The notes beneath the pieces are model-generated. The model was not told where the DNA came from. It saw nothing but the letters and a program-made list of their open reading frames with translations, and made no database searches. This document shows, one piece after another, positions 31,301-45,437 of a stretch of DNA of 45,437 bases (the stretch's first letter is position 1; the number at the start of each line of letters is the position of its first letter). The DNA is from Candidatus Kapaibacterium sp. Lineage in GTDB: Bacteria > Bacteroidota > Ignavibacteria > Kapaibacteriales > UBA2268. The position numbers and the translations under genes are program-made. The DNA is taken from assembly GCA_026390675.1 (NCBI GenBank), contig JAPLFM010000187.1, positions 2,012 to 47,448 of the forward strand. Direction: 5' to 3'.

Positions 31301-34267
31301 ATTAGTTTTACCTTTATAATTAAATGTTGTACCATTAAAAGGAAAAGCTGCAAATAAGTTGCCTTGATTTGAAGGTTTCAAATCTTGAGTTCTAACAGTT
31401 AAAGAACCCTGAATGAATTCAGTAAGTCGTGTTGGTTCATCACCAATATATGATAAATTGTTTGGAACACCATTCCAAAATCTTAATTCTCTTAATTCAC
31501 CCAAAAAAGGACCACTTTTATTAAAAGGCGAACTTCCAATATAGGTAGGAAATGTATTGGAAGAATTTAACTGTAAATCAAGTCCAAGTTGATTGGTGAT
31601 AGATGTATCATTTTGAACAGTTCCATTTATATAAAACAATATTTTGGACTGCCCATTACCACCATTATTATCTATAAATACTCCAATATGTGTCCAAGCT
31701 GTATCAAGTGCTACTTTATTTGGAGCTAATATTTTATGTAAAGTATCACTTATTGCTGTTCTAATTGTGTCTTTAATATCTACAGTTGAAAATTTTAATT
31801 GACCAGTTGAAAGCAGTGCCAAATTAAAATGAGCTTTACTTGAATCATTTCCAACTTTACTTAATATTGTGTATGATGCTGAAGGCAAACTGTATGGTCT
31901 TATCCAAGTTTCAAAGTAAGCATTGTTCTTAGTTAAGTTCATACCAAGTTTACCATTTATAGTAAGTACTTGAAATGAATCCCTTTTAAAAGACAAATAC
32001 CTAGCTACTGTAAATGGTCCTTCAACAGCAGAAATTTCTTGCATACCATAAGTCGAAGCACCTTTGATTCTTATACTTACATCTTTTTTAAAAGGCAAAG
32101 CAGAACGCAAATTTGCACTTGGATTATTGTTATTATAAGGTACCCAATTTGAAGTAGTTTTTTCAGCATCAACTGCTATTGTATCACCTTTATCGGTCTT
32201 TATACCATACCAATTTACTTGGTCTGTTGAATATTGCAATTCCAAATCTTTAGAATTAGGTGTAAAAGCCTCTGCCATACCAAAAGCCAACCAACGTACA
32301 TCATAAATATCTGTTGGATTATTTGTCAATCCAACATTTTTTGTTGGTGATGTAATCCGTATATGAGGTCTATCTGGTCTATAAAATACTGAATCCACAT
32401 TTGGAGTTTTCACAGAAGTATAATAAATCAGATTGTTTGAACCATTTTGAGCTGGATTTGAAGCCAAATCCAAATCATTACCTTCGAAATCATAATAGCT
32501 TTCAAGACTCTTTTTAATGTCGTTAGGTTGAGTTATTATTGATGGTTCTACCACACCATTTACCAAAGATCTAATTTGATTTTGGCTTAATGCAGTTTTC
32601 CATACTTTTACTCCTTTAAATCCAGCTTTTAAAAAATTGTTTTTAGCAAAAGTTGAATTAGGATTGACACCTACCCAAATTGGATGATTTGTTGTTTGCA
32701 TACGAATATCGGCTGCATTGGTATTAATTGATTCATCTACCAATTCTCCATCTACATAAAGTCTAACTATATTATTTTCAACTGTAGCTGCTAAGTGTGT
32801 CCAATTAGTAGAATGAGCTGGAACAATATAAGGTAATGTATCTAAAACTACTCTCAAAGGATAAATAGCTGTAACTTTACCAATATAACCACCTACACCT
32901 CTGCCTAATATTTCTTTTGCTCTAAAAGCAGGTGTTGCTCCATTTTCTAAATAAAGCATCCATGCACCCTCGGACTTTGGATCTGTTCCAGAGCTACTTG
33001 CTATAATTGCTGGTGTTCCAGATTGCACACTGTCATTTAAATTAACCCAAGCCTCTACTGTTAATTGAGTTGAATTGCTATAGGGCTTTTCAGTTTTAAA
33101 AAATTGATTTTTGCCATTTAACTGTGCAAAAAAGAGTCTTCCTAAAACAAAAGATTCTTTGCTTGAATCTGCTAGATTTGATTTTGGTCTTAAAACTAAG
33201 TCTGTAGTGTTATTACCATCAAGCTGTGTAACTCTAATCCTCGCATTTTCAGATCTTTCTGTAAAATAGTTATTGTTTGCCCAAATTACACGAGTTGGTT
33301 TTCTATAATTAGAAGTATTTAATTGTACTGAATCTTGAGAGGTAATGTAAAATCTAGCTGGAGGATTTGATATTTCTCCAGATCTATATTTTGGATTGTT
33401 ACCATCATTATTAGCCGATGTATTTCGCTCGGCAGCTCTTCCTATTTCTTTCCAAGTCAATCCATCATCTAATGAGTATTCATATAAAAAAGCTACATTG
33501 TCATCTACTATACCTGCTGCATTTGGCACTCTATACTTAGTAGGATTCACACTTCTTTCAATATATATTGGATGTCCTAATTTTGCAAATCCACCATTTA
33601 CTCCCAATGGTGCTTTATCTCTATCTACAGTTTGACCTTTGTAACCAGGGTTTAATAAGGTTACACCTACAACTGTTAAGTCACTTGGATTTTTAAAAGC
33701 AACTTTACTTTCAATATCTGTACTATCTGAAGCAAAAATACGAATATCACCCGGCAACTTGCTTGAGCTCCATTTAATATCTGTATTGCTAGTATTTGTA
33801 GGGTTGTTTATTATATCAAAAGTTACTTTACCTATAAAAGTTCCTCTAAAATTTGAATCTACTATAAAACTAGTATTTCCTAAATTTCCAAGACTAAGCT
33901 CTAATGAATAATATTTTGAAGTAATCTGAGTTGAAACTAGCTTTGCATAACCATTTTGTGCATCGAAAGGTGATGAAATTTGGTCAAATATTACCGATTT
34001 TGATAAATTTCTATTTATACTATCAGTTAGATTAAGTTTTTGAATCAAACTCGGTTTGAGAAAAGTTGAATTAAATTCAATTACTAAAGAAGCATAACCT
34101 AACTTTGGTGCATCGAAAGTTTTTCTTTTCACCCAAATTTCAGCTTCAATTTGGTCAAATCTACGCCTTTGGTTAATAGTAAACTCATAACTCTGCGCAT
34201 TCAAATCGATTGCAAAAATCGAAATAAATGTTAAAAGGAAATAAGCTATTTTCTTTATATTTAACAT
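28343..34267 (-). CDS. Giant secreted T9SS substrate with two LamG/ConA-like lectin domains, a dockerin-like double EF-hand, cohesin-like modules and Ig-like repeats
   Basis: The likely start is MLNIKKIAYFLLTFISIFAIDLNAQ (ATG at 34267; the track uses a GTG at 34300). LamG-like segments: LTVEAWVNL...WTHLAATVENNIVRLYVDGELV (~32700-33130) and YFETWIRPYS...WTHIGVF...ILFYINGTVQ (~31560-31930). Dockerin-like segment: GDVNQDGQINAADRVQVRVD...DVTGDGFVNADDRTIVDRNFG (~30040-30192). The C-terminal ISPNPADHNALIEINS...GSGSYFVIIKQNNKTIIRELKVVK is a typical Por_Secre_tail. Confidence 0.85.
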   Translation of the reverse strand: MLNIKKIAYFLLTFISIFAIDLNAQSYEFTINQRRRFDQIEAEIWVKRKTFDAPKLGYASLVIEFNSTFLKPSLIQKLNLTDSINRNLSKSVIFDQISSPFDAQNGYAKLVSTQITSKYYSLELSLGNLGNTSFIVDSNFRGTFIGKVTFDIINNPTNTSNTDIKWSSSKLPGDIRIFASDSTDIESKVAFKNPSDLTVVGVTLLNPGYKGQTVDRDKAPLGVNGGFAKLGHPIYIERSVNPTKYRVPNAAGIVDDNVAFLYEYSLDDGLTWKEIGRAAERNTSANNDGNNPKYRSGEISNPPARFYITSQDSVQLNTSNYRKPTRVIWANNNYFTERSENARIRVTQLDGNNTTDLVLRPKSNLADSSKESFVLGRLFFAQLNGKNQFFKTEKPYSNSTQLTVEAWVNLNDSVQSGTPAIIASSSGTDPKSEGAWMLYLENGATPAFRAKEILGRGVGGYIGKVTAIYPLRVVLDTLPYIVPAHSTNWTHLAATVENNIVRLYVDGELVDESINTNAADIRMQTTNHPIWVGVNPNSTFAKNNFLKAGFKGVKVWKTALSQNQIRSLVNGVVEPSIITQPNDIKKSLESYYDFEGNDLDLASNPAQNGSNNLIYYTSVKTPNVDSVFYRPDRPHIRITSPTKNVGLTNNPTDIYDVRWLAFGMAEAFTPNSKDLELQYSTDQVNWYGIKTDKGDTIAVDAEKTTSNWVPYNNNNPSANLRSALPFKKDVSIRIKGASTYGMQEISAVEGPFTVARYLSFKRDSFQVLTINGKLGMNLTKNNAYFETWIRPYSLPSASYTILSKVGNDSSKAHFNLALLSTGQLKFSTVDIKDTIRTAISDTLHKILAPNKVALDTAWTHIGVFIDNNGGNGQSKILFYINGTVQNDTSITNQLGLDLQLNSSNTFPTYIGSSPFNKSGPFLGELRELRFWNGVPNNLSYIGDEPTRLTEFIQGSLTVRTQDLKPSNQGNLFAAFPFNGTTFNYKGKTNTVPAINNPSIYARFGIDTISYIAAIPFIKLVEPVFRQKVSNTSTDVKVRWVGFDYDGLAISNGSFGVAPSLEYSSRGGGGLSQLYKYIGSTYYLGNSTNSSTIPDSTNFVFKGGTSDIVYALKLNASLANPDVNNDGITNDQGPLNPALTNARLRLNLSYTIENVKQPLVSESPLFTITPIDNFTIRVLLEGHHDGLRNSFNMRDIGTLYPQGAIRITLFEENAGVRGKRLLSELSRFKYEERDPLNRNAGNKKFANVNYLITDISDGKYWVMVEQQNHLPIMSRFPVSFKYDGDNKSTWAIESGWDFATWDGVEDNIMKFETDDAISLKYFNAKGDAKTTVSDPNYNTTGLIFNNGPAGSKTIAIAAMVGGDVNQDGQINAADRVQVRVDDGTNNPSSDVTGDGFVNADDRTIVDRNFGKVSSLYAEPKGVIESDFKNYVVSKPKKENEIQAGALNYKVNAVTKKNGDFATVDFYIRNISTNFKLANSTFAISYDTSAVKFESLNQIDTIIFANKPQLGYYSKLRSAPTDDVDNKLTGVRTIEIDYDKNFINGGINVPYKDTYLGTLKFKILSKEKVIKFNWHNSTSLHSVDNEIVTPYGEFDTISPILQYSAKITTPNGGESYLPSRVINVNWTTDGSQKVRLDLTINGGTNWQTSGTFNVNVKTATMQLPNFPSSNCLVRLVDLASGAELDRSDAFWSIQAGFAKIISPNASEPIYKGGNKAYIQFVAKGYPKVKFEFTEDGVKWYQLLSSVDGNLTSVEWNIPLINTKNARIRMADIDNGQEIAISDVFKIITGTVKFKNPVANESVLAGSTYRVRWNSTNLKRFDIQISYNNGISWVDELKYVDVILGYVPWVVPTALSNNVMLRAVLENDPSVEFDRTKPFTIWDGTMVEDKIEGIDIMQISPNPADHNALIEINSNNEIKLNFVIIDVRGNSIKEFQQFITIGNNKINLDLNDLGSGSYFVIIKQNNKTIIRELKVVK

Positions 34268-34467
34268 AGTTATGTTTGTTTTATATATGTCATACACCAC
34301 TTATATCGGCACTATTGACAAATACTTTAATAATTTTAATTAATTTAAACTGCACAATATTAGACAATTGTTACAAGTTCTCTTTAATATATTACATAGA
34401 TTATGCCAAAAAAATATTACTTACTTTAAATACTTGATTTTACAACTTGAGATACAAAAGCACCTTT

Positions 34468-34897
34468 CCGTCATTCTGAACGAAGTGAAGAATCAAGTGT
34501 TATCTTTGTCCTCCGCTGGCGTGAGGTGTCAGTCTATGACTGACGGAGGTGGTTCTTGCATTCGCATTCGTAGAGACAGGATTCAATCCTGTCTTAAAAC
34601 ATTTAGTAGCACAGACCTTCTTGTCTGTTTCTTATTTATATTCTGTATTCGTAGGGGCCAAAGCTTGCTCAACCCTTGTTAATTCTTGCATTTGTAGAGA
34701 CAGGATTCAATCCTGTCTCAAAACATGTAGTAGCACAGACATTCTTGTCTGTTTCTTATCTATATCCTATTTTCGTAGGGGTTGAGCTTGCTCAACCCTT
34801 TTTATTATCCCATAAATACAGGGTAGAGCAAGCTCTACCCCTACAACCTCAAATTCATCCGATCAGGCAATCGCCTGTGACTTTAAGTTATCGGATG
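34468..34897. repeat. Cluster of REP-like palindromic units, including a ~130-bp tandem duplication (34553-34675 and 34683-34798)
   Basis: Hairpin-forming units:
- cgtcattctgaacgaagtgaagaatc.
- cctccg...gtcagtctatgactgac...ggagg.
- agacaggattcaatcctgtct (twice).
- acagac(c/a)ttcttgtctgt (twice).
- gggttgagcttgctcaaccc.
- gggtagagcaagctctaccc.
- catccgat..caggcaatcgcctg..atcggatg. Confidence 0.85.
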
Positions 34898-35045
34898 AAT
34901 TCTCCAACCGTCTTTTAAAGCAGGTCAAATCTAGATTTAGTTAAACAAATTGCTAGCTATTTTGTTAAAAACTTTATTATGAATTATGAGTGTTTTTTTA
35001 TAGATTGTAAAAGAGTAAGTATCGAATAAGTAAAAATAAATTTAA

Positions 35046-36008
35046 ATGAATAGCAGTAAAATCAGAGTTGCTTTAATAGATGATGGGTTATTTGTAAACG
35101 AATCTTTTGAAACTATGTTAGGTTTACAATTTCCTATAGTTGAAGTTGTTTGTAAAGCTGAGTCTGTGTATGAAGGAATTATGACTATTAAGGCTTTTAA
35201 ACCAGAACTAGTATTTCTTGATATAAAATATCCTGATGGTACTGGTTTTGATATTTTGAAGAATACAAAAGATGTTCCTTTTAAAACAATTTTAGTTACA
35301 GATTATAATGAATATGCAAAAGAAGCTTTTGAGCATTCAGTTTTACATTATATTAAAAAACCTTATAGGGTTGAAGATATTTCAAATTGTTTAGAATTAT
35401 ATGCAAACGATAAGGAAAACAATAAATTTAAAAAAACTAATGACAATGTAACTACTGATTATCAAAATTTTAAAGATTTAGATTATAAAGATATTGATTT
35501 AAATAAACTTAGTTTTATAGATCTTGAAAAAGAATTTATAGAAAGAAGAAAAAATGTAACCACTGTATTTGAAAATGAAACATTGTTATATAAATATGAA
35601 ATGCTTAATCTAAATAGGAAAATAGCTATTTCAACTCAGAATTACAATAACATTAAAAACGAGATTGAAAGTGATAAAATAGTAATAAATACAAAAGGAG
35701 AAGCTATTGAAATTAATAAATCAGATATAGCATATTGTGTTGGTGATGGTAACTATACAGATTTTGTTTTATCTGATTCTAAAACTCATACTGTTTCAAA
35801 AAAATTAAAATCTATTGTAAAATTAATCAACTCAAATAAATTCATTAGAATTAGTAAAAAACACCTCGTGAATTTTGATTTTGTGAAAGAACATAAAATT
35901 GGAATGATTCATAAGGTAATTATGAAGTGTAATACAGTCTTACAGATAGGCAGAATCTACAAAGAAGAGTTTATTCAAAAGTATAATATCTTCAAATCTA
36001 AAAAGTAA
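35046..36008 (+). CDS. Orphan response regulator of the LytR/AlgR family (REC + ~95-aa Asn/Lys-rich linker + LytTR DNA-binding domain)
   Basis: REC domain: IRVALIDDG, VFLDIKYPDGTGFDIL, ILVTDY, IKKPY. LytTR-like tail: IAYCVGDGNYTDFVLSDSKTHTVSKKLKSIVKLINSNKFIRISKKHLVNFDFV. No histidine kinase gene is adjacent. Confidence 0.85.
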   Translation: MNSSKIRVALIDDGLFVNESFETMLGLQFPIVEVVCKAESVYEGIMTIKAFKPELVFLDIKYPDGTGFDILKNTKDVPFKTILVTDYNEYAKEAFEHSVLHYIKKPYRVEDISNCLELYANDKENNKFKKTNDNVTTDYQNFKDLDYKDIDLNKLSFIDLEKEFIERRKNVTTVFENETLLYKYEMLNLNRKIAISTQNYNNIKNEIESDKIVINTKGEAIEINKSDIAYCVGDGNYTDFVLSDSKTHTVSKKLKSIVKLINSNKFIRISKKHLVNFDFVKEHKIGMIHKVIMKCNTVLQIGRIYKEEFIQKYNIFKSKK

Positions 36009-36097
36009 TCAAAATTCCTTTCAATGTATTTTGTGAAATAGTTATGTATTTTGTGAAATACCTATTTTTTTATTTGGTATTTTCATTTATGTTTGAA
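35971..36097 (+). repeat. Element A, copy 1: a 127-bp segment (last 38 nt of the LytTR gene plus 89 nt downstream), duplicated at 42681-42807
   Basis: Reading both copies base by base, I found no mismatch (offset 6710 nt). Confidence 0.95.
36024..36060 (+). promoter_or_regulatory. Pair of 17-nt direct repeats (ATGTATTTTGTGAAATA x2, 20-nt period): candidate LytTR-regulator binding site
   Basis: Identical 17-mers lie at 36024-36040 and 36044-36060, about two helical turns apart and immediately downstream of the LytTR gene. A TAnnTTTG-like motif (TATGTTTG, 36088-36095) sits at the very end of the duplicated block. Function is inferred. Confidence 0.4.
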
Positions 36098-36156
36098 TTA
36101 AGAAAATCGCTGAAATGATTTATTAAAATTTTAAATGGAGTGAAATGATGAAACCT

Positions 36157-36257
36157 ACATAAAAAAAGAAGTCAAAGCAAAATGCTATGACTTCAATACT
36201 CGATAAACAAAGATTCATACCGTCAAAAGATCAATCTTTGCTTGCAGGTAACTGCAA
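36157..36257 (+). repeat. Element B, copy 1: conserved inter-cassette non-coding element with three hairpins
   Basis: Hairpin 1: gaagtca-a-agca-aaa-tgct-a-tgacttc (36168-36194), preceded by an A7 run. Hairpin 2: caaagatt-N17-aatctttg (36208-36240). Hairpin 3: ttgcag-gtaa-ctgcaa (36242-36257). Homologous copies lie at 39441-39542 and 42808-42880. Confidence 0.85.
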
Positions 36258-36349
36258 AAATAATATTTTATATGCAATATACCAAATAAAATCAAAATGT
36301 ATATTGCTTTCTTTAATGTTCAATGAGCAAAGTGCTTAAAGAACTAAAA

Positions 36350-36357
36350 TATTTTTG
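36350..36357 (+). promoter_or_regulatory. Candidate Bacteroidota-type -7 promoter element (TATTTTTG) proximal to S1
   Basis: It matches TAnnTTTG and ends 23 nt before the S1 ATG. The same octamer sits at the equivalent place before S3. An AAGGA Shine-Dalgarno-like sequence follows. Confidence 0.3.
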
Positions 36358-36380
36358 TAACGAATTAAGGAAACTAAAAA

Positions 36381-36998
36381 ATGAAAAAAATAATATTAAG
36401 TGCATTGCTATATGTAATGCTAATATCTGTGAATTGTGATAATTTGGTGGCAGATTGTCCACCAAATTACATCCAACAAATAATTTTGTACTCAATACCT
36501 GGAACAAATTGTGTAGCAAAAGTAGAAGTTTGTTATCAATGTACACCAACAAATAGTGGTAATGTAAATATTGGTGCGATTGAAATATATGATTGCGACG
36601 ACAGACAAAATGCTTGGGGTGTTCTTAACGCAGATAATAGAAGTGCATTAATAAAATATGCTATTTTACATATTAATTATGGCAATTGCACTCCACCTCC
36701 TTGTGATCAAGGTGTTAAACAGTTTGTAGTAAGATCTAGTGCTTGTAACTATTATCAAAATGTTGTTGTAAATGGTGTAAAAATAGTTTCAAAATTGATT
36801 CCATGTAGTTCAGATGGCGCTTATTGTGAAAAAACTTATAATTTATGTTGGGATGGTACAACTATGTTAGTTACTTTAACAGGTTCTTATTTAATAGGTA
36901 TACCTAATTGTTCAACTATTCTACCGGAAATTGGTTCTTATCCATATAATTGGGATCAAAACTGGGAAACATATTGCTTTACAGCTGGCTGCAATTAA
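36381..36998 (+). CDS. S1: secreted cysteine-rich protein (14 Cys in the predicted mature part), unknown family
   Basis: 205 aa with signal peptide MKKIILSALLYVMLIS. Cys positions are colinear with S2 and S3, with motifs CPxx(Y/F), CxxC, CxxxPC, PCxxxGAYCExxYxxC(W/V)D and a C-terminal CFTxGCN. Confidence 0.85.
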   Translation: MKKIILSALLYVMLISVNCDNLVADCPPNYIQQIILYSIPGTNCVAKVEVCYQCTPTNSGNVNIGAIEIYDCDDRQNAWGVLNADNRSALIKYAILHINYGNCTPPPCDQGVKQFVVRSSACNYYQNVVVNGVKIVSKLIPCSSDGAYCEKTYNLCWDGTTMLVTLTGSYLIGIPNCSTILPEIGSYPYNWDQNWETYCFTAGCN

Positions 36999-37014
36999 TA
37001 AATAGGATTATATT

Positions 37015-39402
37015 ATGAAAAAATTAGTTTTAGCATTTCTTATTTTAACAAGTGTTGCTATTTCATCACAAAATTTACCTTTTAAAATGGAAAGATTAAA
37101 TACTGATTTTAAGGGAGTAATTTATTTCAATAACACCATTTTTGCCTATGGCGATTATGGTGTTATTCTTTCAACTAAAGATTTTGGAAAAAATTGGAAA
37201 CAAAATGATATTGATGAAGATTCAGATATAAAAAATATAATTGAAATAAATGGTAGGTTAATAGGTATAGCTGGTTCGAATATTATTGAATATGATAATA
37301 TCAGAGATGTTTGGAATAAATATTTTATTAAAGATTCAATTATGTACAAAGATATTGCTTATGCAAATAGTCAAATTTTTTTAATTTCTGATAATAAAAT
37401 AAAGTCTTTTGATTTAAATTTTAATTTAATCATCGAAGATTTTATTAAAGATAACTCAAAATTTAAAGCTATTGAAACTAAAGATAATGAATTAAATATT
37501 CTAACTACAAATCTAAAATTGATAAAATATGATACTCAGAATAATTTCATTAAAGATTCAATAAATCTAAATAGTAAAATAAATTTTATAAGTACAGATA
37601 ATTTAGAATTTAAGATCATAGATAATGATTATTACTTAGGTTTAATTTCTGGATTACATAAAAGTATTGATGGTGGTTTTAATTGGAATAAAATTGATAC
37701 TATTTATAATACCTTTGAAGTAAAAAATAAAATAATTTATGAAATTTCTTCATTAAATAATCTTAAAACTCCTTCAGAAATTAATTTTAATAAATTTGAA
37801 CAAAATGTTAAAAAGAATATAAATCAAAATTATAAAAATAAAGATAGTACACGTTTAGTTTTCTCTTATGACTTCAAAGGATTTATTTTTATTTCAAATG
37901 ATACTATAGTTTCTGTTGGAGCAGATAAATTAATTGCTATGTCTATTGATGGAGGAAAAGACTGGGAAGTCATTTCTTATTTCAATACTTATTATGCTCA
38001 GCATGGCAATCAATTGCATATTGTAAACGATAGTTTGATATTTGCTTTAAATAGAAATTTTTGTATTAATAAATCTACTAATGGTGGTTTGACGTGGCTT
38101 CCCCAATATTTTAAATATAGGAATTCAAGTGATTATAAAATATTTAACGCTAACTACAATAATAATTGGGGTGAAAACAATACTTATTTTGATAATAAAG
38201 GAAATGGGATTTGTGTTTTAACTTCACGAGATTATATACAAGGGCAAGACTCAATAAATTTTATGAGAACCTTTGACTTTGGAAATACATACGAATATGG
38301 ATATAATAAAGGATTGGATATTGGAGATGGATTAATTGGAGCAAATTTTGTGAAATTTGATTCTAACCTAATTCTGCTCAGCTCAGACTATAATAGATTT
38401 GCACCTTCATATCAGAACACAAACTATATTAGATTGTCTAAATTTGATAATAAATTAAATTTTATTGAAAATATAAAAATTAATTATCAAAAAATACTTA
38501 AAATAATTTCTGATGAAAGTCAAAATTCATTTTTCTTAATAAAAGATAGTACTGGTATTAATTTATGTGAATATACAAGCGGAATAGACACATTTAGAAT
38601 ACTTTATAGTAAATTAAACTTTTTAGAAAATCAACAAATTAAAAGAATTCGATTATTAAATAATAATAAAAGAAAATATCTATTGTATTTCACTGATTCT
38701 ACATCAGGAGGGGAAGTTTTTGATGTACAAAGTGGTAAGTTTATAATAACAAAAAGAACTGTAATTGATACTTTGTTTTTTTATAATTTAGATACTAAAG
38801 AAACAATTGTTTCCTATGTAACTACTGATACAAACTCTCATTTGAGGAATTCTATTTATGGAGAGTCTTTTTTTAAAATAGATGATTCTTGTTTTCTTAG
38901 CACTTCTGATGGTATCATATTTAATGATAATATTTTTATTGATTGTAAAAATTGGGAGGAAATAAATGTTTCTACCTATTCTTTTTGGGGCATATTAAAA
39001 GGTAATAAATATATATTTTGTGTAAATAGTAATAAGGATTTTAGTGAAAGAAAATATGGAGGTGTTTTTAGGTTGTCTTTTTTAGAAAGTAAATCTTCAA
39101 TTGAAACTATTGAAGACCAAACATATTTCTATTCATATCCTCCATATCCTTTACCAGCAAGAAATGAGTTGAAATCATTAATTTATTGGGATATGAGTTA
39201 TAATATAGATGATTCTGATATTGGAGTTTATGATATTTATGGAAATAAAATAGCAAATAGAGAAAAGATAAGTATAAACAAATTAAATTCTTATTCAGGT
39301 TATCTTTCTTGGGATTGTACTGGGGTTGGTACTGGAGTTTATATAATACAGATTAAGCATGGCACTAATACACATAATATTAGAGCTATGGTGGTGCGGT
39401 AG
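37015..39402 (+). CDS. L1: secreted BNR/Asp-box-repeat propeller-like protein with a T9SS C-terminal sorting domain
   Basis: 795 aa, starting 16 nt after the S1 stop. It has a signal peptide and the BNR-like motifs STKDFGKNWKQ, KSIDGGFNWNK, MSIDGGKDWEV, KSTNGGLTWLP and RTFDFGNTYEYG. The tail EDQTYFYSYPPYPLP...GVYIIQIKHGTNTHNIRAMVVR is shared with L0 and L2. Confidence 0.85.
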   Translation: MKKLVLAFLILTSVAISSQNLPFKMERLNTDFKGVIYFNNTIFAYGDYGVILSTKDFGKNWKQNDIDEDSDIKNIIEINGRLIGIAGSNIIEYDNIRDVWNKYFIKDSIMYKDIAYANSQIFLISDNKIKSFDLNFNLIIEDFIKDNSKFKAIETKDNELNILTTNLKLIKYDTQNNFIKDSINLNSKINFISTDNLEFKIIDNDYYLGLISGLHKSIDGGFNWNKIDTIYNTFEVKNKIIYEISSLNNLKTPSEINFNKFEQNVKKNINQNYKNKDSTRLVFSYDFKGFIFISNDTIVSVGADKLIAMSIDGGKDWEVISYFNTYYAQHGNQLHIVNDSLIFALNRNFCINKSTNGGLTWLPQYFKYRNSSDYKIFNANYNNNWGENNTYFDNKGNGICVLTSRDYIQGQDSINFMRTFDFGNTYEYGYNKGLDIGDGLIGANFVKFDSNLILLSSDYNRFAPSYQNTNYIRLSKFDNKLNFIENIKINYQKILKIISDESQNSFFLIKDSTGINLCEYTSGIDTFRILYSKLNFLENQQIKRIRLLNNNKRKYLLYFTDSTSGGEVFDVQSGKFIITKRTVIDTLFFYNLDTKETIVSYVTTDTNSHLRNSIYGESFFKIDDSCFLSTSDGIIFNDNIFIDCKNWEEINVSTYSFWGILKGNKYIFCVNSNKDFSERKYGGVFRLSFLESKSSIETIEDQTYFYSYPPYPLPARNELKSLIYWDMSYNIDDSDIGVYDIYGNKIANREKISINKLNSYSGYLSWDCTGVGTGVYIIQIKHGTNTHNIRAMVVR

Positions 39403-39440
39403 TGAGGGGCATTTTGATATAATAGGGAAATATGACACCA

Positions 39441-39542
39441 ACATAAAAAAAGAAGTCAAAGCAAAATGCTCTGACTTCCAAACTGAAAAAAACAAAGATT
39501 GAGACCGACAAAAGTTTAATCTTTGCTTGCAGGTAACTGCAA
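39441..39542 (+). repeat. Element B, copy 2 (hairpins at 39452-39478, 39493-39525 and 39527-39542)
   Basis: It has the same three hairpins as copy 1. The stems are conserved while the 17-nt loop of hairpin 2 differs. There is no element A in front of this copy. Confidence 0.85.
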
Positions 39543-39621
39543 AAATAAGTTTTTTTAATCAAATAATAAGCTATATAAATGTTTTTGTATAGTATTTTTA
39601 AACAATTTTTGGAGTTTTTTT

Positions 39622-40254
39622 ATGAAAAAGATATTTTTAAGTGCATTGCTTTTTGTAATGCTAATCTCAATGAGTTATGAGTTGTCATACGCTTCTTGTC
39701 CAAGTGGATATTACTCAGGATTTGTTTATAAAAACATCTCAGGCTGTAACTTTAAAGTTACTTATTGTTATAAATGTGATCCAACAGGAGTAACTGATAT
39801 ACAATTAGATACTATTACTATTCCATTAGGTTGTAGCCTTTCTTTAGCACTAAATAATTTACAAGCAATAAGTGAAGCAGCAGTATATAACATTATTTCA
39901 ACTGGAGGCTGTACTACCCAACCTTGTGGCACTATACCACCTACAGTATATTCTATCAAAGTATCGACAAATATATGCAATAGAGTAGTCAATACTGTTT
40001 ATTTTAATGGAGTAGATTCGCTACATCTAAACACATTACTAATTCCTTGTGACCCAGGAGGGGCTTATTGTGAAAGACGATATGCAGTCTGTGTGGATAA
40101 TAACCAAACTCCACCTGTTTATTATACTAATTATTTGGGTAGTACTCCTTATGGTTCTCCTTCTTGTACAGCTGGTGTACCTACTTTACCACCTTCAGGT
40201 AAATCTATGGATGAATATTGGGATACTGGATGTTTTACAACTGGTTGTAATTAA
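39622..40254 (+). CDS. S2: secreted cysteine-rich protein, paralog of S1 and S3
   Basis: 210 aa. The signal peptide MKKIFLSALLFVMLISMSY is nearly identical to that of S1 and S3 at the nucleotide level. It has 14 colinear Cys and ends in CFTTGCN. Confidence 0.85.
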   Translation: MKKIFLSALLFVMLISMSYELSYASCPSGYYSGFVYKNISGCNFKVTYCYKCDPTGVTDIQLDTITIPLGCSLSLALNNLQAISEAAVYNIISTGGCTTQPCGTIPPTVYSIKVSTNICNRVVNTVYFNGVDSLHLNTLLIPCDPGGAYCERRYAVCVDNNQTPPVYYTNYLGSTPYGSPSCTAGVPTLPPSGKSMDEYWDTGCFTTGCN

Positions 40255-40269
40255 TTATAGGAAAGTATT

Positions 40270-42639
40270 ATGAAAAAGTTAGTTTTAGCCTTTCTTATTT
40301 TAGCAAGCATTGCTATTAATGCACAAACCTTACCTTTCAAAATGGAAAGGATGAATACTAATTTTAATAGTATTAGTTGTTTTAATAACACCATATTTGT
40401 CGGAGGCAAATATGGTGTTATTCTTTCGTCAAAAGACTTTGGTAAAAGTTGGAAAAAACAATTTATTGATGAAAACTTAACTATATATAAGTTTTTAAAA
40501 GTTGAAGATAGATTATTAGGTTTAGCATCAAATAAACTAATTGAGTTTGATAAATTAAGTGAAAATTGGAAAGTAGTTAATATGATTGATTCTACTCCAA
40601 TTCTAAACATTGAGTATTCAAATAATAATTTAATTGTATTATATCAAAACAAAGTAAAATTGTATGATAAAAATTTGAATTTGATAGAAGAAGATTTAAT
40701 AAAATCAGATTCAAGTTTTGTAAATTGTTCTTTAGATAAAAGTTTATTATATGTGATTTTAAAAGATTATATATTAATTAAATATGATTTGAATAATAAA
40801 AACATTACCCAAACTAATTTGAAAGATAGACTTAATTGTGATGCTTGCAAAGTATCAAAATTTGAAATCAAAGATAGTATTATTGTTTTTAAAACAAACA
40901 AAGGAATGTATATTAGTAAAAATAAAGGAACAGATTTCTTTGTAATAGGAAACACACTTACAACTTTTGAAATATTCAATAATGATATTTATGAGATTGA
41001 AAATAGTATTAAACCTTTAATTACAAAAGCTATTAGTACTATAGACTTTAATAAAATAACAAATAACCTAAGAAACAAACTATCAATTATAAATGAAGAT
41101 AGTTTGAGATTAAGTCATAGTTATCAATTTGAAGATTTGTGTTTTATGAATAAAGATATTATAATCGGAGTAGGAAATAATAATTTAATTTCTATTTCAT
41201 ATAATGGTGGAGTTACTTGGAAAGTGATATCTTATTTAGATAATAATCCAATTGAACAAAATAGATATGCAAAAATGTATTATGTTAACGATAGCTTAAT
41301 GTATGTGATGGGTGAAAATTTTGTTATATATAAGTCTCTAGATGCTGGCAATACATGGTTACCTCAATATTATACTTCAAATAAAATATACTTGGATTCA
41401 TATAATGATCTATTCCCAAATCAACACAATCTTTATTTTGATGAAAAAGGCTATGGAATTATTATTAACAATTCTTATGCAGTTAGAGATACATTTAAGA
41501 ATAAAAATAATATTAATTATATGATTACAAAAGACTTTGGAAATACTTATGAATATGGGTATAGTAGGAATATAGATAACTTAGGAAATATAGGGAATTA
41601 TTTTATTCCATCGGATAATAATATAACAATGTTTTGTACAAGTTCTTTTAAATTTCAAGGAGTTGATACATTAACTACATATTTAATATATTATATATTT
41701 GATAAAAATATGAAATATCTTTCAAAAAAAGTAGAAATTGGCAGACTATTAGATAAAGTAATTTTTGATGAATATAAAAATTGTTATATAGTTTTAAAAG
41801 AACAAAATGAGAAAAATATTTATAAATTTTCTCAATTAAATGGGAATTTAGAATTAATAAGAAAAAACATTGATTATTCTGATTTTGGTACTCAAATAAT
41901 AAACAATAAAGACAAATCACTTTCATTAATGTATTATAAGGAAATAGCTTCAGGTGGTCCAATAATAGTAAATAAGGAAGTTGTTATTACCCCAAGAAAG
42001 CTCATTGACACCTTATTCAACTTTAATTTAAGCGATAATACTAAGAAAGTTGAATATATTAATACGGACACTTTATTTAATATTTTTGATACTGGGTATG
42101 GAAATACATTTCATATAGTTGATAATTCATTTTATATTAATTGTGTAAATGGATTAATTAGAAAAAAAGATATAAATAATAGTAATAGTTGGGAAAAAAT
42201 ACCTATTCCAGGTTATATTTTATGTAGTGTATTTTACGGAGATAAATATAATTTATGCTATAATAAAGGTGATGCTTATGGGTCTGTTCAAGCTGGACTT
42301 TTCAAAATTATTCCAAATAATCCTATAACAACTGTCGAAATTCAAACAGAAGATTTTACATACTTTTACTCCTACCCACCTTTCCCAACACCTTCGATAA
42401 ATGTTGTGATGAGTTTGATTTATTGGGATATGAGTTATAATATAGATGATTCTGACATTGGAGTTTATGATATTTACGGAAATAAAGTAGCTGATAGAGA
42501 TAAGATAAGTATAAATAAACTAAATTCATATTCAGGTTATCTTACTTGGGATTGCTCAGGTATTGCTACTGGTGTTTATATGATACAAATCAAACATGGA
42601 ACTAATACTAATAATATCAGAGCTATGGTGGTGAGGTAA
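40270..42639 (+). CDS. L2: secreted BNR/Asp-box-repeat propeller-like protein with a T9SS C-terminal sorting domain
   Basis: 789 aa, starting 15 nt after the S2 stop. The N-terminal ~65 aa (MKKLVLAFLILASIAINAQTLPFKMERMNTNF...YGVILSSKDFGKSWKKQ) and the C-terminal ~97 aa closely match L1. The core is diverged. Confidence 0.85.
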   Translation: MKKLVLAFLILASIAINAQTLPFKMERMNTNFNSISCFNNTIFVGGKYGVILSSKDFGKSWKKQFIDENLTIYKFLKVEDRLLGLASNKLIEFDKLSENWKVVNMIDSTPILNIEYSNNNLIVLYQNKVKLYDKNLNLIEEDLIKSDSSFVNCSLDKSLLYVILKDYILIKYDLNNKNITQTNLKDRLNCDACKVSKFEIKDSIIVFKTNKGMYISKNKGTDFFVIGNTLTTFEIFNNDIYEIENSIKPLITKAISTIDFNKITNNLRNKLSIINEDSLRLSHSYQFEDLCFMNKDIIIGVGNNNLISISYNGGVTWKVISYLDNNPIEQNRYAKMYYVNDSLMYVMGENFVIYKSLDAGNTWLPQYYTSNKIYLDSYNDLFPNQHNLYFDEKGYGIIINNSYAVRDTFKNKNNINYMITKDFGNTYEYGYSRNIDNLGNIGNYFIPSDNNITMFCTSSFKFQGVDTLTTYLIYYIFDKNMKYLSKKVEIGRLLDKVIFDEYKNCYIVLKEQNEKNIYKFSQLNGNLELIRKNIDYSDFGTQIINNKDKSLSLMYYKEIASGGPIIVNKEVVITPRKLIDTLFNFNLSDNTKKVEYINTDTLFNIFDTGYGNTFHIVDNSFYINCVNGLIRKKDINNSNSWEKIPIPGYILCSVFYGDKYNLCYNKGDAYGSVQAGLFKIIPNNPITTVEIQTEDFTYFYSYPPFPTPSINVVMSLIYWDMSYNIDDSDIGVYDIYGNKVADRDKISINKLNSYSGYLTWDCSGIATGVYMIQIKHGTNTNNIRAMVVR

Positions 42640-42680
42640 TTGTGAATTACGAATTATGAATTATAAACAAACAAAAAAAC

Positions 42681-42807
42681 TTATTCAAAAGTATAATATC
42701 TTCAAATCTAAAAAGTAATCAAAATTCCTTTCAATGTATTTTGTGAAATAGTTATGTATTTTGTGAAATACCTATTTTTTTATTTGGTATTTTCATTTAT
42801 GTTTGAA
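42681..42807 (+). repeat. Element A, copy 2 (includes a 38-nt fragment of the 3' end of the LytTR gene)
   Basis: Exact duplicate of 35971-36097. Here it is fused directly to a 5'-truncated element B. Confidence 0.95.
42734..42770 (+). promoter_or_regulatory. Second copy of the 17-nt direct-repeat pair (candidate LytTR box), upstream of cassette 3
   Basis: ATGTATTTTGTGAAATA at 42734-42750 and 42754-42770, within element A copy 2. Confidence 0.4.
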
Positions 42808-42880
42808 CTCTGACTTCAATACTCGAAAAACAAAGATTATGACCCTACAAAGTACAATCTTTGCTTGCAGGTAACTGCAA
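42808..42880 (+). repeat. Element B, copy 3 (left arm of hairpin 1 deleted; hairpins 2 and 3 intact)
   Basis: Only the right arm ctgacttc of hairpin 1 remains. Hairpin 2 is caaagatt (42831-38) N17 aatctttg (42856-63). Hairpin 3 is ttgcag gtaa ctgcaa (42865-80). Homology with copy 1 continues down to the S3 start codon. Confidence 0.85.
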
Positions 42881-42970
42881 AAATAAGTATTTATACGTAA
42901 TATACCAAATTAAATCAAAATGTATATTACTTTCTCTAAAGCTCTATAAGTTTAGAGCTTAAACAACTAA

Positions 42971-42978
42971 TATTTTTG
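42971..42978 (+). promoter_or_regulatory. Candidate -7 promoter element (TATTTTTG) proximal to S3
   Basis: It is the same octamer, with the same spacing to the ATG, as before S1. Confidence 0.3.
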
Positions 42979-43002
42979 TAAAAAAATTAAGGAAACTAAA
43001 AA

Positions 43003-43623
43003 ATGAAGAAAATAATATTAAGTGCATTGCTATTTGTAATGCTAATTTCGATGAGTTATCAAAGTGCAGAGGCTACATGTCCGACAGGATTTACTGAATA
43101 TACTCAAACAATTACTTATGGTGGATGTGAATGGACAGTAATATTTTGTGTGAAGTGTGGTGTCACTACTGGTTACAATGAAGTTTGGATTCAACAATTT
43201 TCAATTCAAAATTCATCTTGCTATACTTACTTCACGGCACATTCACAAGAAGTTATAGATGCAATAGCAGCAAATGTAACTTTATTGACTGCCGATATTT
43301 GTGGAATTAAACCACCTTGTGGTAGTGGAATAAGATATACTTATGTTTACCTTGCAACATGTTGGCAAAATATGCATGTTGTTAATAGTACTGAAGATTA
43401 TTTTGTACAAAGATTTTGTAGCGATATTGAATTTTGTAAGTCAACATATTCGACTTGTTGGGATTATTCAGTAACGCCTGCTACACCTGTTTTGACTTTA
43501 ATAGGCAAACAGCATTACGGTACTCCACAATGTGCACGAAATAATAATAAACCAAGTGATTTTGATAATCCAACTCCTCCAAATAATTGGTCTTCTTGTT
43601 GGGAAGAATTTCTTTGCAAATAA
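43003..43623 (+). CDS. S3: secreted cysteine-rich protein, the most diverged paralog
   Basis: 206 aa with signal peptide MKKIILSALLFVMLISMSYQSAEA. It has 14 colinear Cys and a C-terminal CWEEFLCK instead of CFTxGCN. Confidence 0.85.
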   Translation: MKKIILSALLFVMLISMSYQSAEATCPTGFTEYTQTITYGGCEWTVIFCVKCGVTTGYNEVWIQQFSIQNSSCYTYFTAHSQEVIDAIAANVTLLTADICGIKPPCGSGIRYTYVYLATCWQNMHVVNSTEDYFVQRFCSDIEFCKSTYSTCWDYSVTPATPVLTLIGKQHYGTPQCARNNNKPSDFDNPTPPNNWSSCWEEFLCK

Positions 43624-43643
43624 TTTATATATAAAAGGTATTT

Positions 43644-45437
43644 ATGAAAAAATCAACTTTATTAATTGCATTACTATTATTGAATTTTAGTTTAATATTT
43701 TCCCAAGCAAATAGTGACAATTTGCTTTGGGAAAATGATATTAAAAGTATTGATTTTAGTGGTACTTTGGCTATTGGAAATAATGTATTTGCTTATGGTA
43801 CTAAAGGGATGTACTTTTATTCAAGTGATAAAGGAGTGGGCTGGGAGCAGAAAAAAGTTGAGAATGCTTCCAGTATTATAAAACTCCTAAATATTGATAA
43901 CAAAATAATTGGATTTACAGCAAGCGGTCAGCTTCTGCAAAGTGAAGACTTTGGTAAAACTTGGCAAATAAGTAAGTTAGAAAATGTTGAACTAATTTGT
44001 TTTGTTGATACTTACTTAAGTAATATATATATAAGAACAAATAAATCAATTAATTTATATAATAATAAATTAGAATTAATTTCTTCATATAAAAATGATG
44101 CTTTAAATGATTTTTCAATTTATGAAATTGAATCAGATGTTTCATCAATTTCTTCTTGGCATAATATTATTTTTCATAAAAATGAATTATATTTTTATAT
44201 TGCTAATAATCCAAAGCTTTATAAAATAAATATAAATAAATTTCTAAATAATGAAATTAAGATTGATACTATTACTCCTTGTGATACTTGTCAAACAGGT
44301 AATATTGGTGATTTAAGCAAATATAACAACACAATTACTTTTTATTTAAGTAGATTTAATGACAAGTATGAAAGTCGAGATTACAAGTACAATTTAGATT
44401 CTAATAGTATTTCTGAAAATTCATACGATGAAAAGAGAAAATATAGTGGAAAATATTTTAATTTAAATGGAATAAATTATAGATTTTATGATTTTGCACC
44501 ATATTGGATATCTAACTACCCAACTAATTATTTTAAATTAGGTGTGGATATTTTAAACACTTCTGATAGTTTGACAAATAAAGGTAATTCAGATTTTATT
44601 GGAGTAAATCGTTCTCCAGTAATTAGTGATGTATGTCAAGTATCAGATAGTACTTTTATAGCTGTTTCTGGATATAAGTTTTTAATAATTTCAAATGATA
44701 AATGCAAGACTTGGAAAGTAATTAGCTCAAGAGGAGATTTGGCTCAAACTAAACCTGATTTGATAAGTAAAAATTATAGATATTTTGCTAATAATTTAAC
44801 AAATATATCTTCTTCAATTGATAATGGATTGACTTATAAATTTATTGAAAGAGATTTGAATGAATCAGAATTAGTTAAGTTTTATAAAAATTCACAGACA
44901 AAAATTACAGCCAAATATTTAGATACAAATGGGACTTTTATTTATTTAATGACAAGTAATTTGAGCAATTACAATAATATTGCAGTTAGCAAAGACTATG
45001 GCAAAACAGCCACTTATTTTAAAAATAATTCAGTTGCATATTCAACTTCTGATGTAATCAATTTTAGCAAAATAGATAATAAACTTATTTACTTGTTTAA
45101 TTATCAAACAATCAATAAAAATTATTTCATATACTGTAATTTTGATTTGAATATGAATATTACAAGAAGAATAGTTGATTCTATTAATATTGCAAAATTT
45201 GTTTCATTTAAAAATTTGAATGAGGGATTTATGATTACTGCAATTCGTAATCCAACTCCAACAAAAATTGAAGCATTAACTTGGAATGCTAAGGATTCGA
45301 ATTGGATTAGATCTAAATCTTTAGATTTAGTTTATACAGATTTAAAAGTATTTTCTTATGGTAAAAATAAAGATAGTGCTATAGTTTGCGTTATTAATTT
45401 TAATGCTGGAATAAGTAACAATAAGATTTATATTTAT
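43644..45437 (+). CDS. L3: secreted BNR-repeat propeller-like protein, 3' end outside the window
   Basis: It is absent from the ORF track because no stop codon is reached. My translation from the ATG at 43644 (20 nt after the S3 stop) is open for 598 codons to the window end: MKKSTLLIALLLLNFSLIFSQANSDNLLWENDIKSIDFSG...YSSDKGVGWEQ...QSEDFGKTWQI...ISNDKCKTWKV...VSKDYGKTATYF. Confidence 0.8.
   Translation, partial: MKKSTLLIALLLLNFSLIFSQANSDNLLWENDIKSIDFSGTLAIGNNVFAYGTKGMYFYSSDKGVGWEQKKVENASSIIKLLNIDNKIIGFTASGQLLQSEDFGKTWQISKLENVELICFVDTYLSNIYIRTNKSINLYNNKLELISSYKNDALNDFSIYEIESDVSSISSWHNIIFHKNELYFYIANNPKLYKININKFLNNEIKIDTITPCDTCQTGNIGDLSKYNNTITFYLSRFNDKYESRDYKYNLDSNSISENSYDEKRKYSGKYFNLNGINYRFYDFAPYWISNYPTNYFKLGVDILNTSDSLTNKGNSDFIGVNRSPVISDVCQVSDSTFIAVSGYKFLIISNDKCKTWKVISSRGDLAQTKPDLISKNYRYFANNLTNISSSIDNGLTYKFIERDLNESELVKFYKNSQTKITAKYLDTNGTFIYLMTSNLSNYNNIAVSKDYGKTATYFKNNSVAYSTSDVINFSKIDNKLIYLFNYQTINKNYFIYCNFDLNMNITRRIVDSINIAKFVSFKNLNEGFMITAIRNPTPTKIEALTWNAKDSNWIRSKSLDLVYTDLKVFSYGKNKDSAIVCVINFNAGISNNKIYIY

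Follow-up and report, generated by a model that had tools for sequence, protein, structure and literature searches.

A conserved two-gene unit pairing a cysteine-rich secreted protein family with predicted BNR-propeller proteins in Candidatus Kapaibacterium and its relatives

Proteins that a type IX secretion system (T9SS) exports as cargo are generally regarded as single polypeptides that carry their own C-terminal signal, and the Ignavibacteria/Kapabacteria constitute a poorly studied sister lineage of Bacteroidota. The stretch of DNA considered here, hereafter the window, comprises 45,437 nt of contig JAPLFM010000187.1 of Candidatus Kapaibacterium sp. and contains a gene for a LytTR response regulator followed by three tandem pairs of genes, each consisting of a small gene (S) for a secreted cysteine-rich protein and a large gene (L) for a predicted BNR-propeller protein (S1/L1, S2/L2, and S3/L3; Table 1). 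This locus raises the question of why a small secreted protein is encoded ahead of every large one, and whether the regulator, the noncoding elements, and the tandem arrangement belong to the same system. The original prediction regarded the locus as a LytTR-headed, diversifying array of extracellular two-gene modules that had grown by duplication of a regulator-proximal unit. According to the present analysis, the basic unit is a two-gene operon, S and then L, and not the regulator plus the array.

The evidence for this unit comes from its conservation beyond the window. An L-type gene is the next gene after S, on the same strand, in 17 of 17 pairs read as DNA (gaps of −34 to 109 nt), and the same succession recurs in all eight further contexts with called genes. 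Contigs with called genes that carry S relatives always have a gene of 730–910 aa directly downstream on the same strand, often with at least two S-L units in a row, and a search started in reverse from L relatives leads again to an S gene upstream. Furthermore, a scan of species-representative genomes with a 7-member subset of the S alignment yielded 11 S loci, and a profile search of all open reading frames (ORFs) placed an L-type gene immediately after S in 11 of 11. These loci are labelled Ignavibacteria, Candidatus Kapaibacterium, a Bacteroidetes/Chlorobi-group metagenome-assembled genome (MAG), and two bins labelled Hyphomicrobiales; the complete 2.66-Mb Candidatus Kapaibacterium genome has two S sites. 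The expectation that S homologs elsewhere would always adjoin an L-type gene was thus borne out. The pairwise distances of S and L are correlated (Mantel r = 0.85, 0 of 5000 permutations), and therefore S and L have been inherited and duplicated as one unit, which does not imply contact between their products. S-L is a conserved, co-oriented, tightly spaced, and co-diverging module across Ignavibacteria/Kapabacteria relatives, and the two genes are presumably co-transcribed. A literature search returned no publication joining Ignavibacteria, type IX secretion, and cysteine-rich, and the combination of Kapabacteria and T9SS returned only an unrelated survey of carbohydrate-active enzymes.

Additional observations were made at individual loci. 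Two MAGs labelled "uncultured Hyphomicrobiales" (CAZOOR010000026.1, locus L005, and CAZDXB010000013.1, locus L006) carry S-L pairs with T9SS-type tails, at 33.5 bits (over the cut-off) and 26.8 bits (slightly under it), respectively; such pairs are typical of Ignavibacteriota relatives, and these bins or contigs are probably mislabelled taxonomically. At ~380–520 of L003, an S-like start (MKNKILLTILAIAIILLSPISTYSDMCPDNTEGCTNCW) lies before the first L gene and stops after ~46 codons, apparently a decayed S gene ahead of an intact L. In one sample, two contigs (contexts of P0015 and P0016) have a 256-aa protein without a recorded Pfam match after their last S-L unit; this protein could be a third conserved component.

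As judged by profile searches, S is a genuine, previously undescribed protein family. S1–S3 are mutually homologous, as predicted, with 32–37% identity and every mature cysteine in register in the alignment; each mature protein contains 14 cysteines, and S1 has a 15th within its signal peptide. A word-indexed search retrieved 20 relatives, and an exhaustive profile search of 1.84 billion cluster representatives retrieved 746 matches at E ≤ 1e-3 and 451 at E ≤ 1e-10, of which all 150 listed (of the 746) are single-domain proteins of 150–250 aa. Thirteen cysteines are invariant in the family and the 14th shifts between two nearby positions. The family signature further comprises an N-terminal C-P-x-G-[YW], a central PPC, and a proline-rich C-terminal P-x-x-PP-x-G-x-x-W-x-x-x-W-x-T-x-C-[FY]-x-x-x-C that includes a G-K-x-W stretch, together with a position directly upstream of an L-type gene. 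The S proteins of the window belong to the family so delimited (secreted, ~190–250 aa, 13 invariant cysteines, these motifs, and an L-type gene next), and the C-terminal motif of S3 is degenerate. Over the mature part, the closest relatives elsewhere are 83% identical for S2 (P0004) and 89% for S3 (P0003), and S1 has a relative at 45% identity in other samples.

The signal peptides of S, as read from the sequence, end in AxA-type cleavage sites one residue before the first cysteine, and S has no C-terminal sorting (T9SS) domain; the description of S as a secreted protein with 14 cysteines is hence retained. These cysteines presumably form seven disulfides. A lipoprotein is ruled out, since the residue before the first cysteine is Q, T, S, or D after the AxA-type site and there is no lipobox; a metal/CxxC protein is likewise ruled out, since the second cysteine of the CxxC moves to an adjacent position in many members. 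The AlphaFold2 (AF2) model built from a 21-sequence alignment is confident and comprises three strands, a helix, and five strands (predicted local distance difference test, pLDDT, 84.3; predicted template modeling score 0.76). No neighbor of this fold was found by Foldseek in the PDB (best template modeling score, TM, ~0.13) or in BFVD, S has no Pfam or NCBIfam match, 25 diverse members gave no match of any kind to Pfam at E ≤ 0.01, neither S nor L matches PADLOC, and a sequence profile against the PDB gave only one insignificant match (E 0.055). The original statement that S cannot be assigned to any family is in agreement with these results. Furthermore, no S relative was found in the viral contigs scanned. 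Sequence and model together describe S as a Sec-exported protein with a mature part of ~185 aa and a fold without solved neighbor.

A separate observation concerns the S leader. The signal peptide MKKI[IF]LSALL[FY]VMLIS is near-invariant in the 21 closest S proteins (in the window at 36381–36434, 39622–39675, and 43003–43056), in which the first 18 residues are 72% identical pairwise versus 28% for the mature part. The DNA that encodes the leader is less conserved than the peptide, with 66–79% identity between the copies in the window, and the more distant members of the family have ordinary, different signal peptides. This suggests selection on the leader peptide in this lineage.

L is best described as a predicted tandem BNR/Asp-box beta-propeller protein, exported by Sec and subsequently by the T9SS, with a T9SS-type C-terminal tail. 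The L proteins are homologous as had been proposed: identity is 42% between L1 and L2 and 21% between L3 and L1, and the truncated L3 scores 429 bits against the L profile. The L signal peptides read from the sequence, MKKLVLAFLILTSVAISSQ and MKKLVLAFLILASIAINAQ, are N-terminal Sec signals. L2 matches PSII_BNR above the cut-off (39.8 bits), and its AF2 model is all-beta with an overall pLDDT of 63.6, residues 30–240 and a C-terminal beta-sandwich at 700–789 being confident; the top Foldseek matches are BT4663/BT4673 and PorZ (5M11), with E 2e-16 to 2.5e-15. L relatives were gathered through synteny with S, as word-index searches for L gave only 3–7 proteins, and their Pfam matches are PSII_BNR, BNR, and Sortilin-Vps10 (near the cut-off, up to 34.6 bits versus 33). 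Por_Secre_tail (PF18962) is above the cut-off in five of ten relatives (L005, 33.5; L007, 39.6; L008, 31.4; L012, 29.2; and L015, 28.6 bits). The propeller matches, the fold matches, and the tails of these five relatives uphold the original description of L as a BNR-propeller T9SS protein. For the tail of the L proteins of the window themselves, the confident beta-sandwich in the L2 model is in favor, whereas the Pfam match remains below the cut-off (L2, 21.7 bits versus 27; L1 not reported).

The host itself uses the T9SS, to judge from two further proteins of the window, and the core T9SS genes lie outside the window. The first, encoded adjacent to the regulator on the minus strand and divergently (28343–34300), is 1985 aa long and combines two stretches of Laminin_G_3 (ConA-like lectin) with a clear T9SS tail (Por_Secre_tail, 36.9 bits). 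The second is an L-type paralog without S (17267–19987; 906 aa; 238 bits against the L profile; Por_Secre_tail, 24.6 bits), which directly follows the gene of a 951-aa PD40, M28 peptidase, and PDZ protein (14304–17159).

Table 1. Features of the regulator and array region in window coordinates
Feature	Position	Strand	Description
LytTR response regulator	35046–36008	+	320 aa; REC, ~100-aa linker, C-terminal LytTR
127-nt exact repeat, copy 1	35971–36097	+	last 38 nt of regulator gene and 89 nt downstream
D9 hairpin	36168–36194	+	strong stem-loop, A-run before stem
D5 element, copy 1	36205–36277	+	104–176 nt upstream of S1 start codon
S1	36381–36998	+	205 aa, Sec signal peptide, 14 Cys in mature part
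L1	37015–39402	+	795 aa, signal peptide, predicted tandem BNR/Asp-box beta-propellers and C-terminal T9SS-type beta-sandwich
D9 hairpin, second copy	~39451–39479		after L1 stop codon; 87% identity to first
D5 element, copy 2	39490–39562	+	L1–S2 intergenic region
S2	39622–40254	+	210 aa, 14 Cys
L2	40270–42639	+	789 aa, predicted tandem beta-propeller T9SS cargo
127-nt exact repeat, copy 2	42681–42807	+	before cassette 3
D5 element, copy 3	42828–42900	+	before S3
S3	43003–43623	+	206 aa, 14 Cys
L3	43644–45437	+	N-terminal 598 codons, gene cut by window end; more diverged L-type propeller (predicted)

All ORFs of the array lie on the + strand in a six-frame ORF list, which reproduces the regulator and the three tandem pairs as originally located, with gaps of 16, 15, and 20 nt within pairs 1, 2, and 3, respectively.

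Regarding function, we tentatively favor the reading in which S is the cognate binding subunit of the secreted surface propeller L, and hold it to be somewhat less probable than an even chance. Briefly, S and L would be made in fixed proportion from one transcript, would associate in the periplasm or at the surface, and would act together as a surface or extracellular binding module, i.e., a receptor or adhesin for a polymer or another cell, rather than as an enzyme; the paralogous S-L pairs would differ in specificity. A bolder form, which we consider quite unlikely, is that S is a new-fold subunit with seven disulfides that is carried across the outer membrane bound to its propeller, the latter bearing the C-terminal domain (CTD); such hitch-hiker export through the type IX system would give heterodimeric surface receptors in Ignavibacteriota with one specificity per pair. 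Several points weigh against a binding subunit: the confidence of the L model as a whole is only moderate (pLDDT 63.6), co-inheritance by itself would make S and L co-vary, S is without a T9SS domain and could equally stay in the periplasm, and L-type paralogs without S are common (17267–19987 in the window, L012, L013, and L015), because of which L in general does not need S.

In the most probable of the alternatives, which we nevertheless regard as unlikely, each S serves its own L as a dedicated accessory in the periplasm (a holdase, an inhibitor, or a secretion/anchoring factor) and remains outside the final surface structure. The strict adjacency with S first, the Sec signal of S together with the lack of a T9SS domain, and the co-divergence of each paralogous pair would all fit such a role, and cognate partner genes beside T9SS cargo are a known pattern (PMC9143113). 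By contrast, S is modelled as a soluble-looking, disulfide-rich beta/alpha protein with no outer-membrane barrel, and many L-type paralogs have the same tail and no S. The tail of L is moreover of the type A-like Por_Secre_tail kind, and no type A T9SS cargo is known to require a private partner.

It is also quite unlikely, in our estimation, that S and L are merely co-expressed extracytoplasmic proteins with independent roles, for instance in one surface or matrix programme, whose pairing reflects operon inheritance. Co-inheritance would account for the co-variation of S and L, and L-type genes do exist without S; however, the adjacency holds in all contexts examined even with S only 21–47% identical to S1, the fixed order and short gaps exceed the usual loose membership of operons, and S never occurs without L wherever the downstream DNA could be read. 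Little credence is given to the possibility that L is a BNR-type glycan-active enzyme (sialidase- or GH74-like) with S as a carbohydrate-binding or substrate-presenting accessory. The BNR/Asp-box motifs, weak matches to BNR_2 and "F510_1955 family glycosylhydrolase," and the tandem-propeller layout, which is also present in GH74 enzymes, are in its favor. The enzyme-family matches, however, are all far below cut-off (23–29 bits versus 175), structurally L comes closest to BT4663/BT4673 and PorZ, which are binders without catalytic activity, and no recognizable catalytic family signature or catalytic motif was identified in L, in accordance with the original remark on this protein.

The regulator, which had been taken to head the system, is linked with S-L only locally, in this lineage. 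Its Response_reg (40.8 bits) and LytTR (32.7 bits) matches are both above the Pfam cut-off and the receiver residues are canonical (D12/D13, D59, T85, and K104), which makes it a REC-LytTR protein. No histidine kinase was found among the window ORFs of at least 100 aa that were scanned, so that the term "orphan" holds, within the window only; pheromone, C39-exporter, toxin, and immunity genes were likewise not found among the scanned window ORFs, which leaves the bacteriocin or quorum-sensing connotation that had been attached to LytTR unsupported. No regulator homolog lies within 6 kb of any of the 11 genome loci, and the other S-L units adjoin unrelated housekeeping genes. The prediction that S homologs would often be near a LytTR gene therefore failed, and "LytTR-headed" is not a property of the system: only one other contig has the link, with a 568-aa kinase, an 84-aa ORF, a REC-LytTR regulator, and then S and L in succession, and judging by its near-identical S signal peptide that contig is from a close relative. 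An antagonistic locus (an effector with its immunity protein or inhibitor, or a bacteriocin-like system, under LytTR quorum control), to which the adjacent regulator, the tandem and diverged pairs, and the secreted products had pointed, is accordingly very improbable, since the window ORFs scanned include no toxin, immunity, peptide-pheromone, C39-exporter, or kinase gene, S and L are without PADLOC match, the LytTR link is absent in 11 of 11 genome loci, close relatives of two of the three paralogs exist in other samples, unlike what hypervariability would give, and, as regards polymorphic toxin/immunity pairs, no toxin or immunity family was matched (Pfam, NCBIfam, PADLOC) and the small gene lies upstream and has a signal peptide.

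The exact 127-nt repeat before cassette 3, which consists of 38 nt of the end of the regulator gene and 89 nt beyond it, was confirmed: positions 35971–36097 and 42681–42807 are 100% identical, and the flanking 205 nt are 78% identical (repeat finder). Copy 1 contains two perfect 17-bp direct repeats ATGTATTTTGTGAAATA at 36024–36040 and 36044–36060 (period 20, 3-bp spacer), the first of which begins after 15 nt past the stop codon of the regulator, and copy 2 contains the same boxes at 42734–42750 and 42754–42770; perfect ATGTATTTTGTGAAATA boxes occur four times in the window, all inside the two copies. A TAnnTTTG motif (TATGTTTG), corresponding to the Bacteroidetes-type −7 box, ends the segment (36088–36095 and 42798–42805). 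Owing to the paired direct repeats, the mode of LytTR binding, and this motif at the segment end, the 127-nt segment is predicted to be a portable LytTR-dependent promoter module; the sites recognized by AgrA-type LytTR proteins are paired direct repeats situated just upstream of a promoter (PMC4227749). The regulator, fed by a kinase encoded elsewhere, would then drive cassette 1 through the two 17-bp repeats just past its own gene and, after the recent copy event discussed below, cassette 3 as well. Counting against this regulatory part of the proposal, TAnnTTTG is common in this AT-rich DNA (~1.1 per kb) and is hence weak evidence, the 17-bp repeats lie 95–180 nt from the D5 element with no conserved spacing, and LytTR linkage is found in 2 of ~25 S-L contexts.

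Two hairpin elements, D5 and D9, precede the S genes. D5 is a 73-nt element before each S with 82–86% identity (repeat finder), composed of an 8-bp stem, CAAAGATT/AATCTTTG, that encloses a variable loop, and then of TTGCAG-GTAA-CTGCAA; on folding it gives two hairpins (z −2 to −3), and its 16-nt core palindrome TTGCAGGTAACTGCAA has only three sites in the 45-kb window versus 0.04 expected. D5 also lies upstream of the S3-type genes from three other samples (L016–L018). Its stems are invariant and variation is confined to the first loop, because of which roles in RNA and in DNA are inseparable. At the more distant genome loci L002–L015, no D5 was found ahead of S; a metagenome scan for the D5 core gave no match, in a collection that evidently does not include the Joint Genome Institute (JGI) contigs L017 and L018, which carry D5; and a search of 34000–45437 against Rfam gave sub-threshold chance matches only. 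D5 may thus provide a second, lineage-specific control site before every S. D9 is a 60-nt hairpin segment before S1 and S2 (87% identity; folding z −5.6 and −4.9) that looks terminator-like on the minus strand (39479–39451) and is conserved in L016–L018. Of the original claim that the same hairpin-rich element precedes every pair, the part concerning D5 stands, whereas D9 is intact in the window only before S1 and S2, its left half before S3 being replaced by the 127-nt patch. An origin of D5/D9 as the 3′ end of an upstream L gene was ruled out, as in L016 and L018 both stand ahead of an S3-type gene without any L before it; the two elements belong to the 5′ side of S, not to the 3′ side of L.

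Other observations on the noncoding DNA are as follows. The ~100 nt before S are of two types, one shared by S1 and S3 of the window (36278–36380 and 42901–43002, with TATTTTTG ~24 nt before the ATG) and the other by S2 (39563–39621) and the S3-type genes of the three other samples (L016–L018). These types cross-cut cassette identity; consequently, the cassettes have exchanged their upstream regions separately from their coding sequences. Furthermore, the 1985-aa T9SS gene and the regulator are separated by a divergent intergenic region of 746 nt, which (at 34440–34850) has a higher GC content than the DNA around it and contains a 124-nt tandem duplication (34564–34657 and 34688–34781, 91% identity) packed with perfect hairpins (AGACAGGATTCAATCCTGTCT, ACAGAC..GTCTGT, and GTAGGGGTTGAGCTTGCTCAACCC/AGGGTAGAGCAAGCTCTACCCC). 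Since L016 and L018 have nearly identical GTAGGGGTAGAGCTTGCTCTACCC hairpins ahead of their S3-type gene, these hairpins look like a dispersed element of the lineage resembling repetitive extragenic palindromes or miniature inverted-repeat transposable elements (REP/MITE-like), and the region is a possible rearrangement hotspot.

The history of the array differs from that originally proposed. Synonymous differences between the paralogs are saturated along the whole genes, conserved ends included (proportion of synonymous differences, pS, 0.4–0.8), and with saturated synonymous sites neither the ratio of nonsynonymous to synonymous change (dN/dS) between paralogs nor gene conversion in the coding regions is readable. 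Because of this saturation, and because other samples contain relatives that are 83 and 89% identical to S2 and S3, respectively, the three cassettes are, on sequence grounds, ancient paralogs; the separation of S2 from S3, at least, is accordingly older than the divergence of those organisms. The 127-nt repeat is a recent patch, most simply copied from the regulator-proximal region to before cassette 3, and not a founding scar, because its copies show 100% identity and it disrupts a hairpin which related loci have in intact form: the right edge of the segment before S3 falls inside D9 and deletes its left arm, and the three S3-type loci from other samples have intact D9 and D5 and no patch. 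Growth of the array by duplication of a regulator-proximal unit is contradicted by the age of the cassettes and the recency of the repeat, and the term "diversifying" does not suit old paralogs of which two have close relatives elsewhere and whose dN/dS is concealed by saturation. The patch places cassette 3 under the same repeats as cassette 1 and removes a hairpin, and cassettes 1 and 2 could be deleted or amplified by way of the two direct copies, which are 6.7 kb apart.

Two features of the window lie apart from the array. A TonB-dependent receptor appears to be split into 24103–24837 (CarboxypepD_reg and Plug) and 25113–26228 (beta-barrel) with 275 nt between, and could be a frameshifted pseudogene or an assembly error. 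The ORF at 806–4297 encodes a 1163-aa FN3/Ig-repeat protein, and its gene has six tandem 297-nt repeats (1347–3135; 76% identity).

A conserved, co-diverging partner without a T9SS signal would imply either a new class of cargo accessory or the export of folded hetero-complexes, and the S-L pairing would open a first way to the function of the BNR tandem-propeller surface proteins that are expanded in Ignavibacteria/Kapabacteria. Should S and L not interact, the finding would amount to a new domain-of-unknown-function family and a useful synteny marker.

Among known systems, PorZ (PG1604) of Porphyromonas gingivalis, which is single-copy, resembles L in its signal peptide, two beta-propellers, C-terminal T9SS beta-sandwich, and length of ~780 aa; its structure 5M11 matches the L2 model with E 2.5e-15 and TM 0.38, the best TM among the top ten matches, all of which have E < 1e-12. 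The arrangement of two propellers and a CTD is likewise present in L, as far as a moderate-confidence model indicates, and the single ortholog expected of a core component is not: a genome has several diverged L paralogs, which are arranged in arrays and are each preceded by an S gene, and L carries BNR/Asp-box motifs. No sequence-level match to PorZ was seen for L. Because of its multiple copies and its pairing with S, L is no ortholog of PorZ. PorZ is a surface protein that has been compared with BT4663 and for whose propellers a ligand-binding role has been proposed (PMC5121618), and it is a T9SS component delivering A-LPS to PorU (PMC8545088). The periplasmic sensor domains of the Bacteroides hybrid two-component systems BT4663/BT4673 (4A2L, 3OTT, and 3VA6) are the top structural matches of L (E 2e-16 to 4e-14), and in BT4663 the entry face of each of the two propellers binds disaccharide ligands (PMC5121618). 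They are, however, dimeric N-terminal modules of membrane histidine kinases, whereas L has a T9SS tail and no transmembrane or kinase part; no Pfam match to Reg_prop or Y_Y_Y was found in L, which is thus unlike a hybrid two-component sensor. In comparison with Ycf48/HCF136, the best PSII_BNR stretch of L2 covers only profile positions 13–94 of 303, and the NCBIfam Ycf48 equivalog scores 30 bits on L versus a cut-off of 326; the match to PSII_BNR reflects shared BNR-propeller ancestry only, as far as these scores indicate.

Sortilin/Vps10 combines an Asp-box propeller with a disulfide-rich module (the cysteine-rich 10CC), and SorCS2 is among the fold matches of L; by contrast, sortilin is one polypeptide with a ten-bladed propeller, versus two genes and two propellers here. 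S as a Sortilin_C/10CC homolog was ruled out, as 25 S members gave no Pfam match and S has no fold or sequence match in the PDB; the likeness is a resemblance only. The LytTR regulators AgrA, ComE, and BtsR/YpdB share with the window regulator the REC and LytTR domains and paired direct repeats beside regulated genes, BtsR/LytR being its best NCBIfam similarity (64 versus an equivalog cut-off of 246). It differs from AgrA, ComE, and BtsR in its extra ~100-aa linker and in having no cognate kinase, pheromone, or exporter nearby, and the usual LytTR repeat unit is ~9 bp with a spacer of ~12 bp, compared with 17 bp and a 3-bp spacer here. The adjacent kinase, pheromone, and C39 exporter of Agr/Com/Blp-type systems were not found among the window ORFs scanned; in the other contig, a kinase and an 84-aa ORF precede the regulator. 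Finally, type B CTD cargo with a PorP/SprF-like partner (SprB-SprF) has, like S-L, a dedicated adjacent partner gene, an arrangement repeated in one genome for several paralogous cargos (PMC9143113). The PorP/SprF-like partner is an outer-membrane protein encoded beside type B CTD cargo, whereas S is a small, soluble-type, disulfide-rich protein encoded upstream of a type A-like L; the operon logic closest to that of S-L is nonetheless that of type B CTD cargo with its PorP/SprF-like partners.

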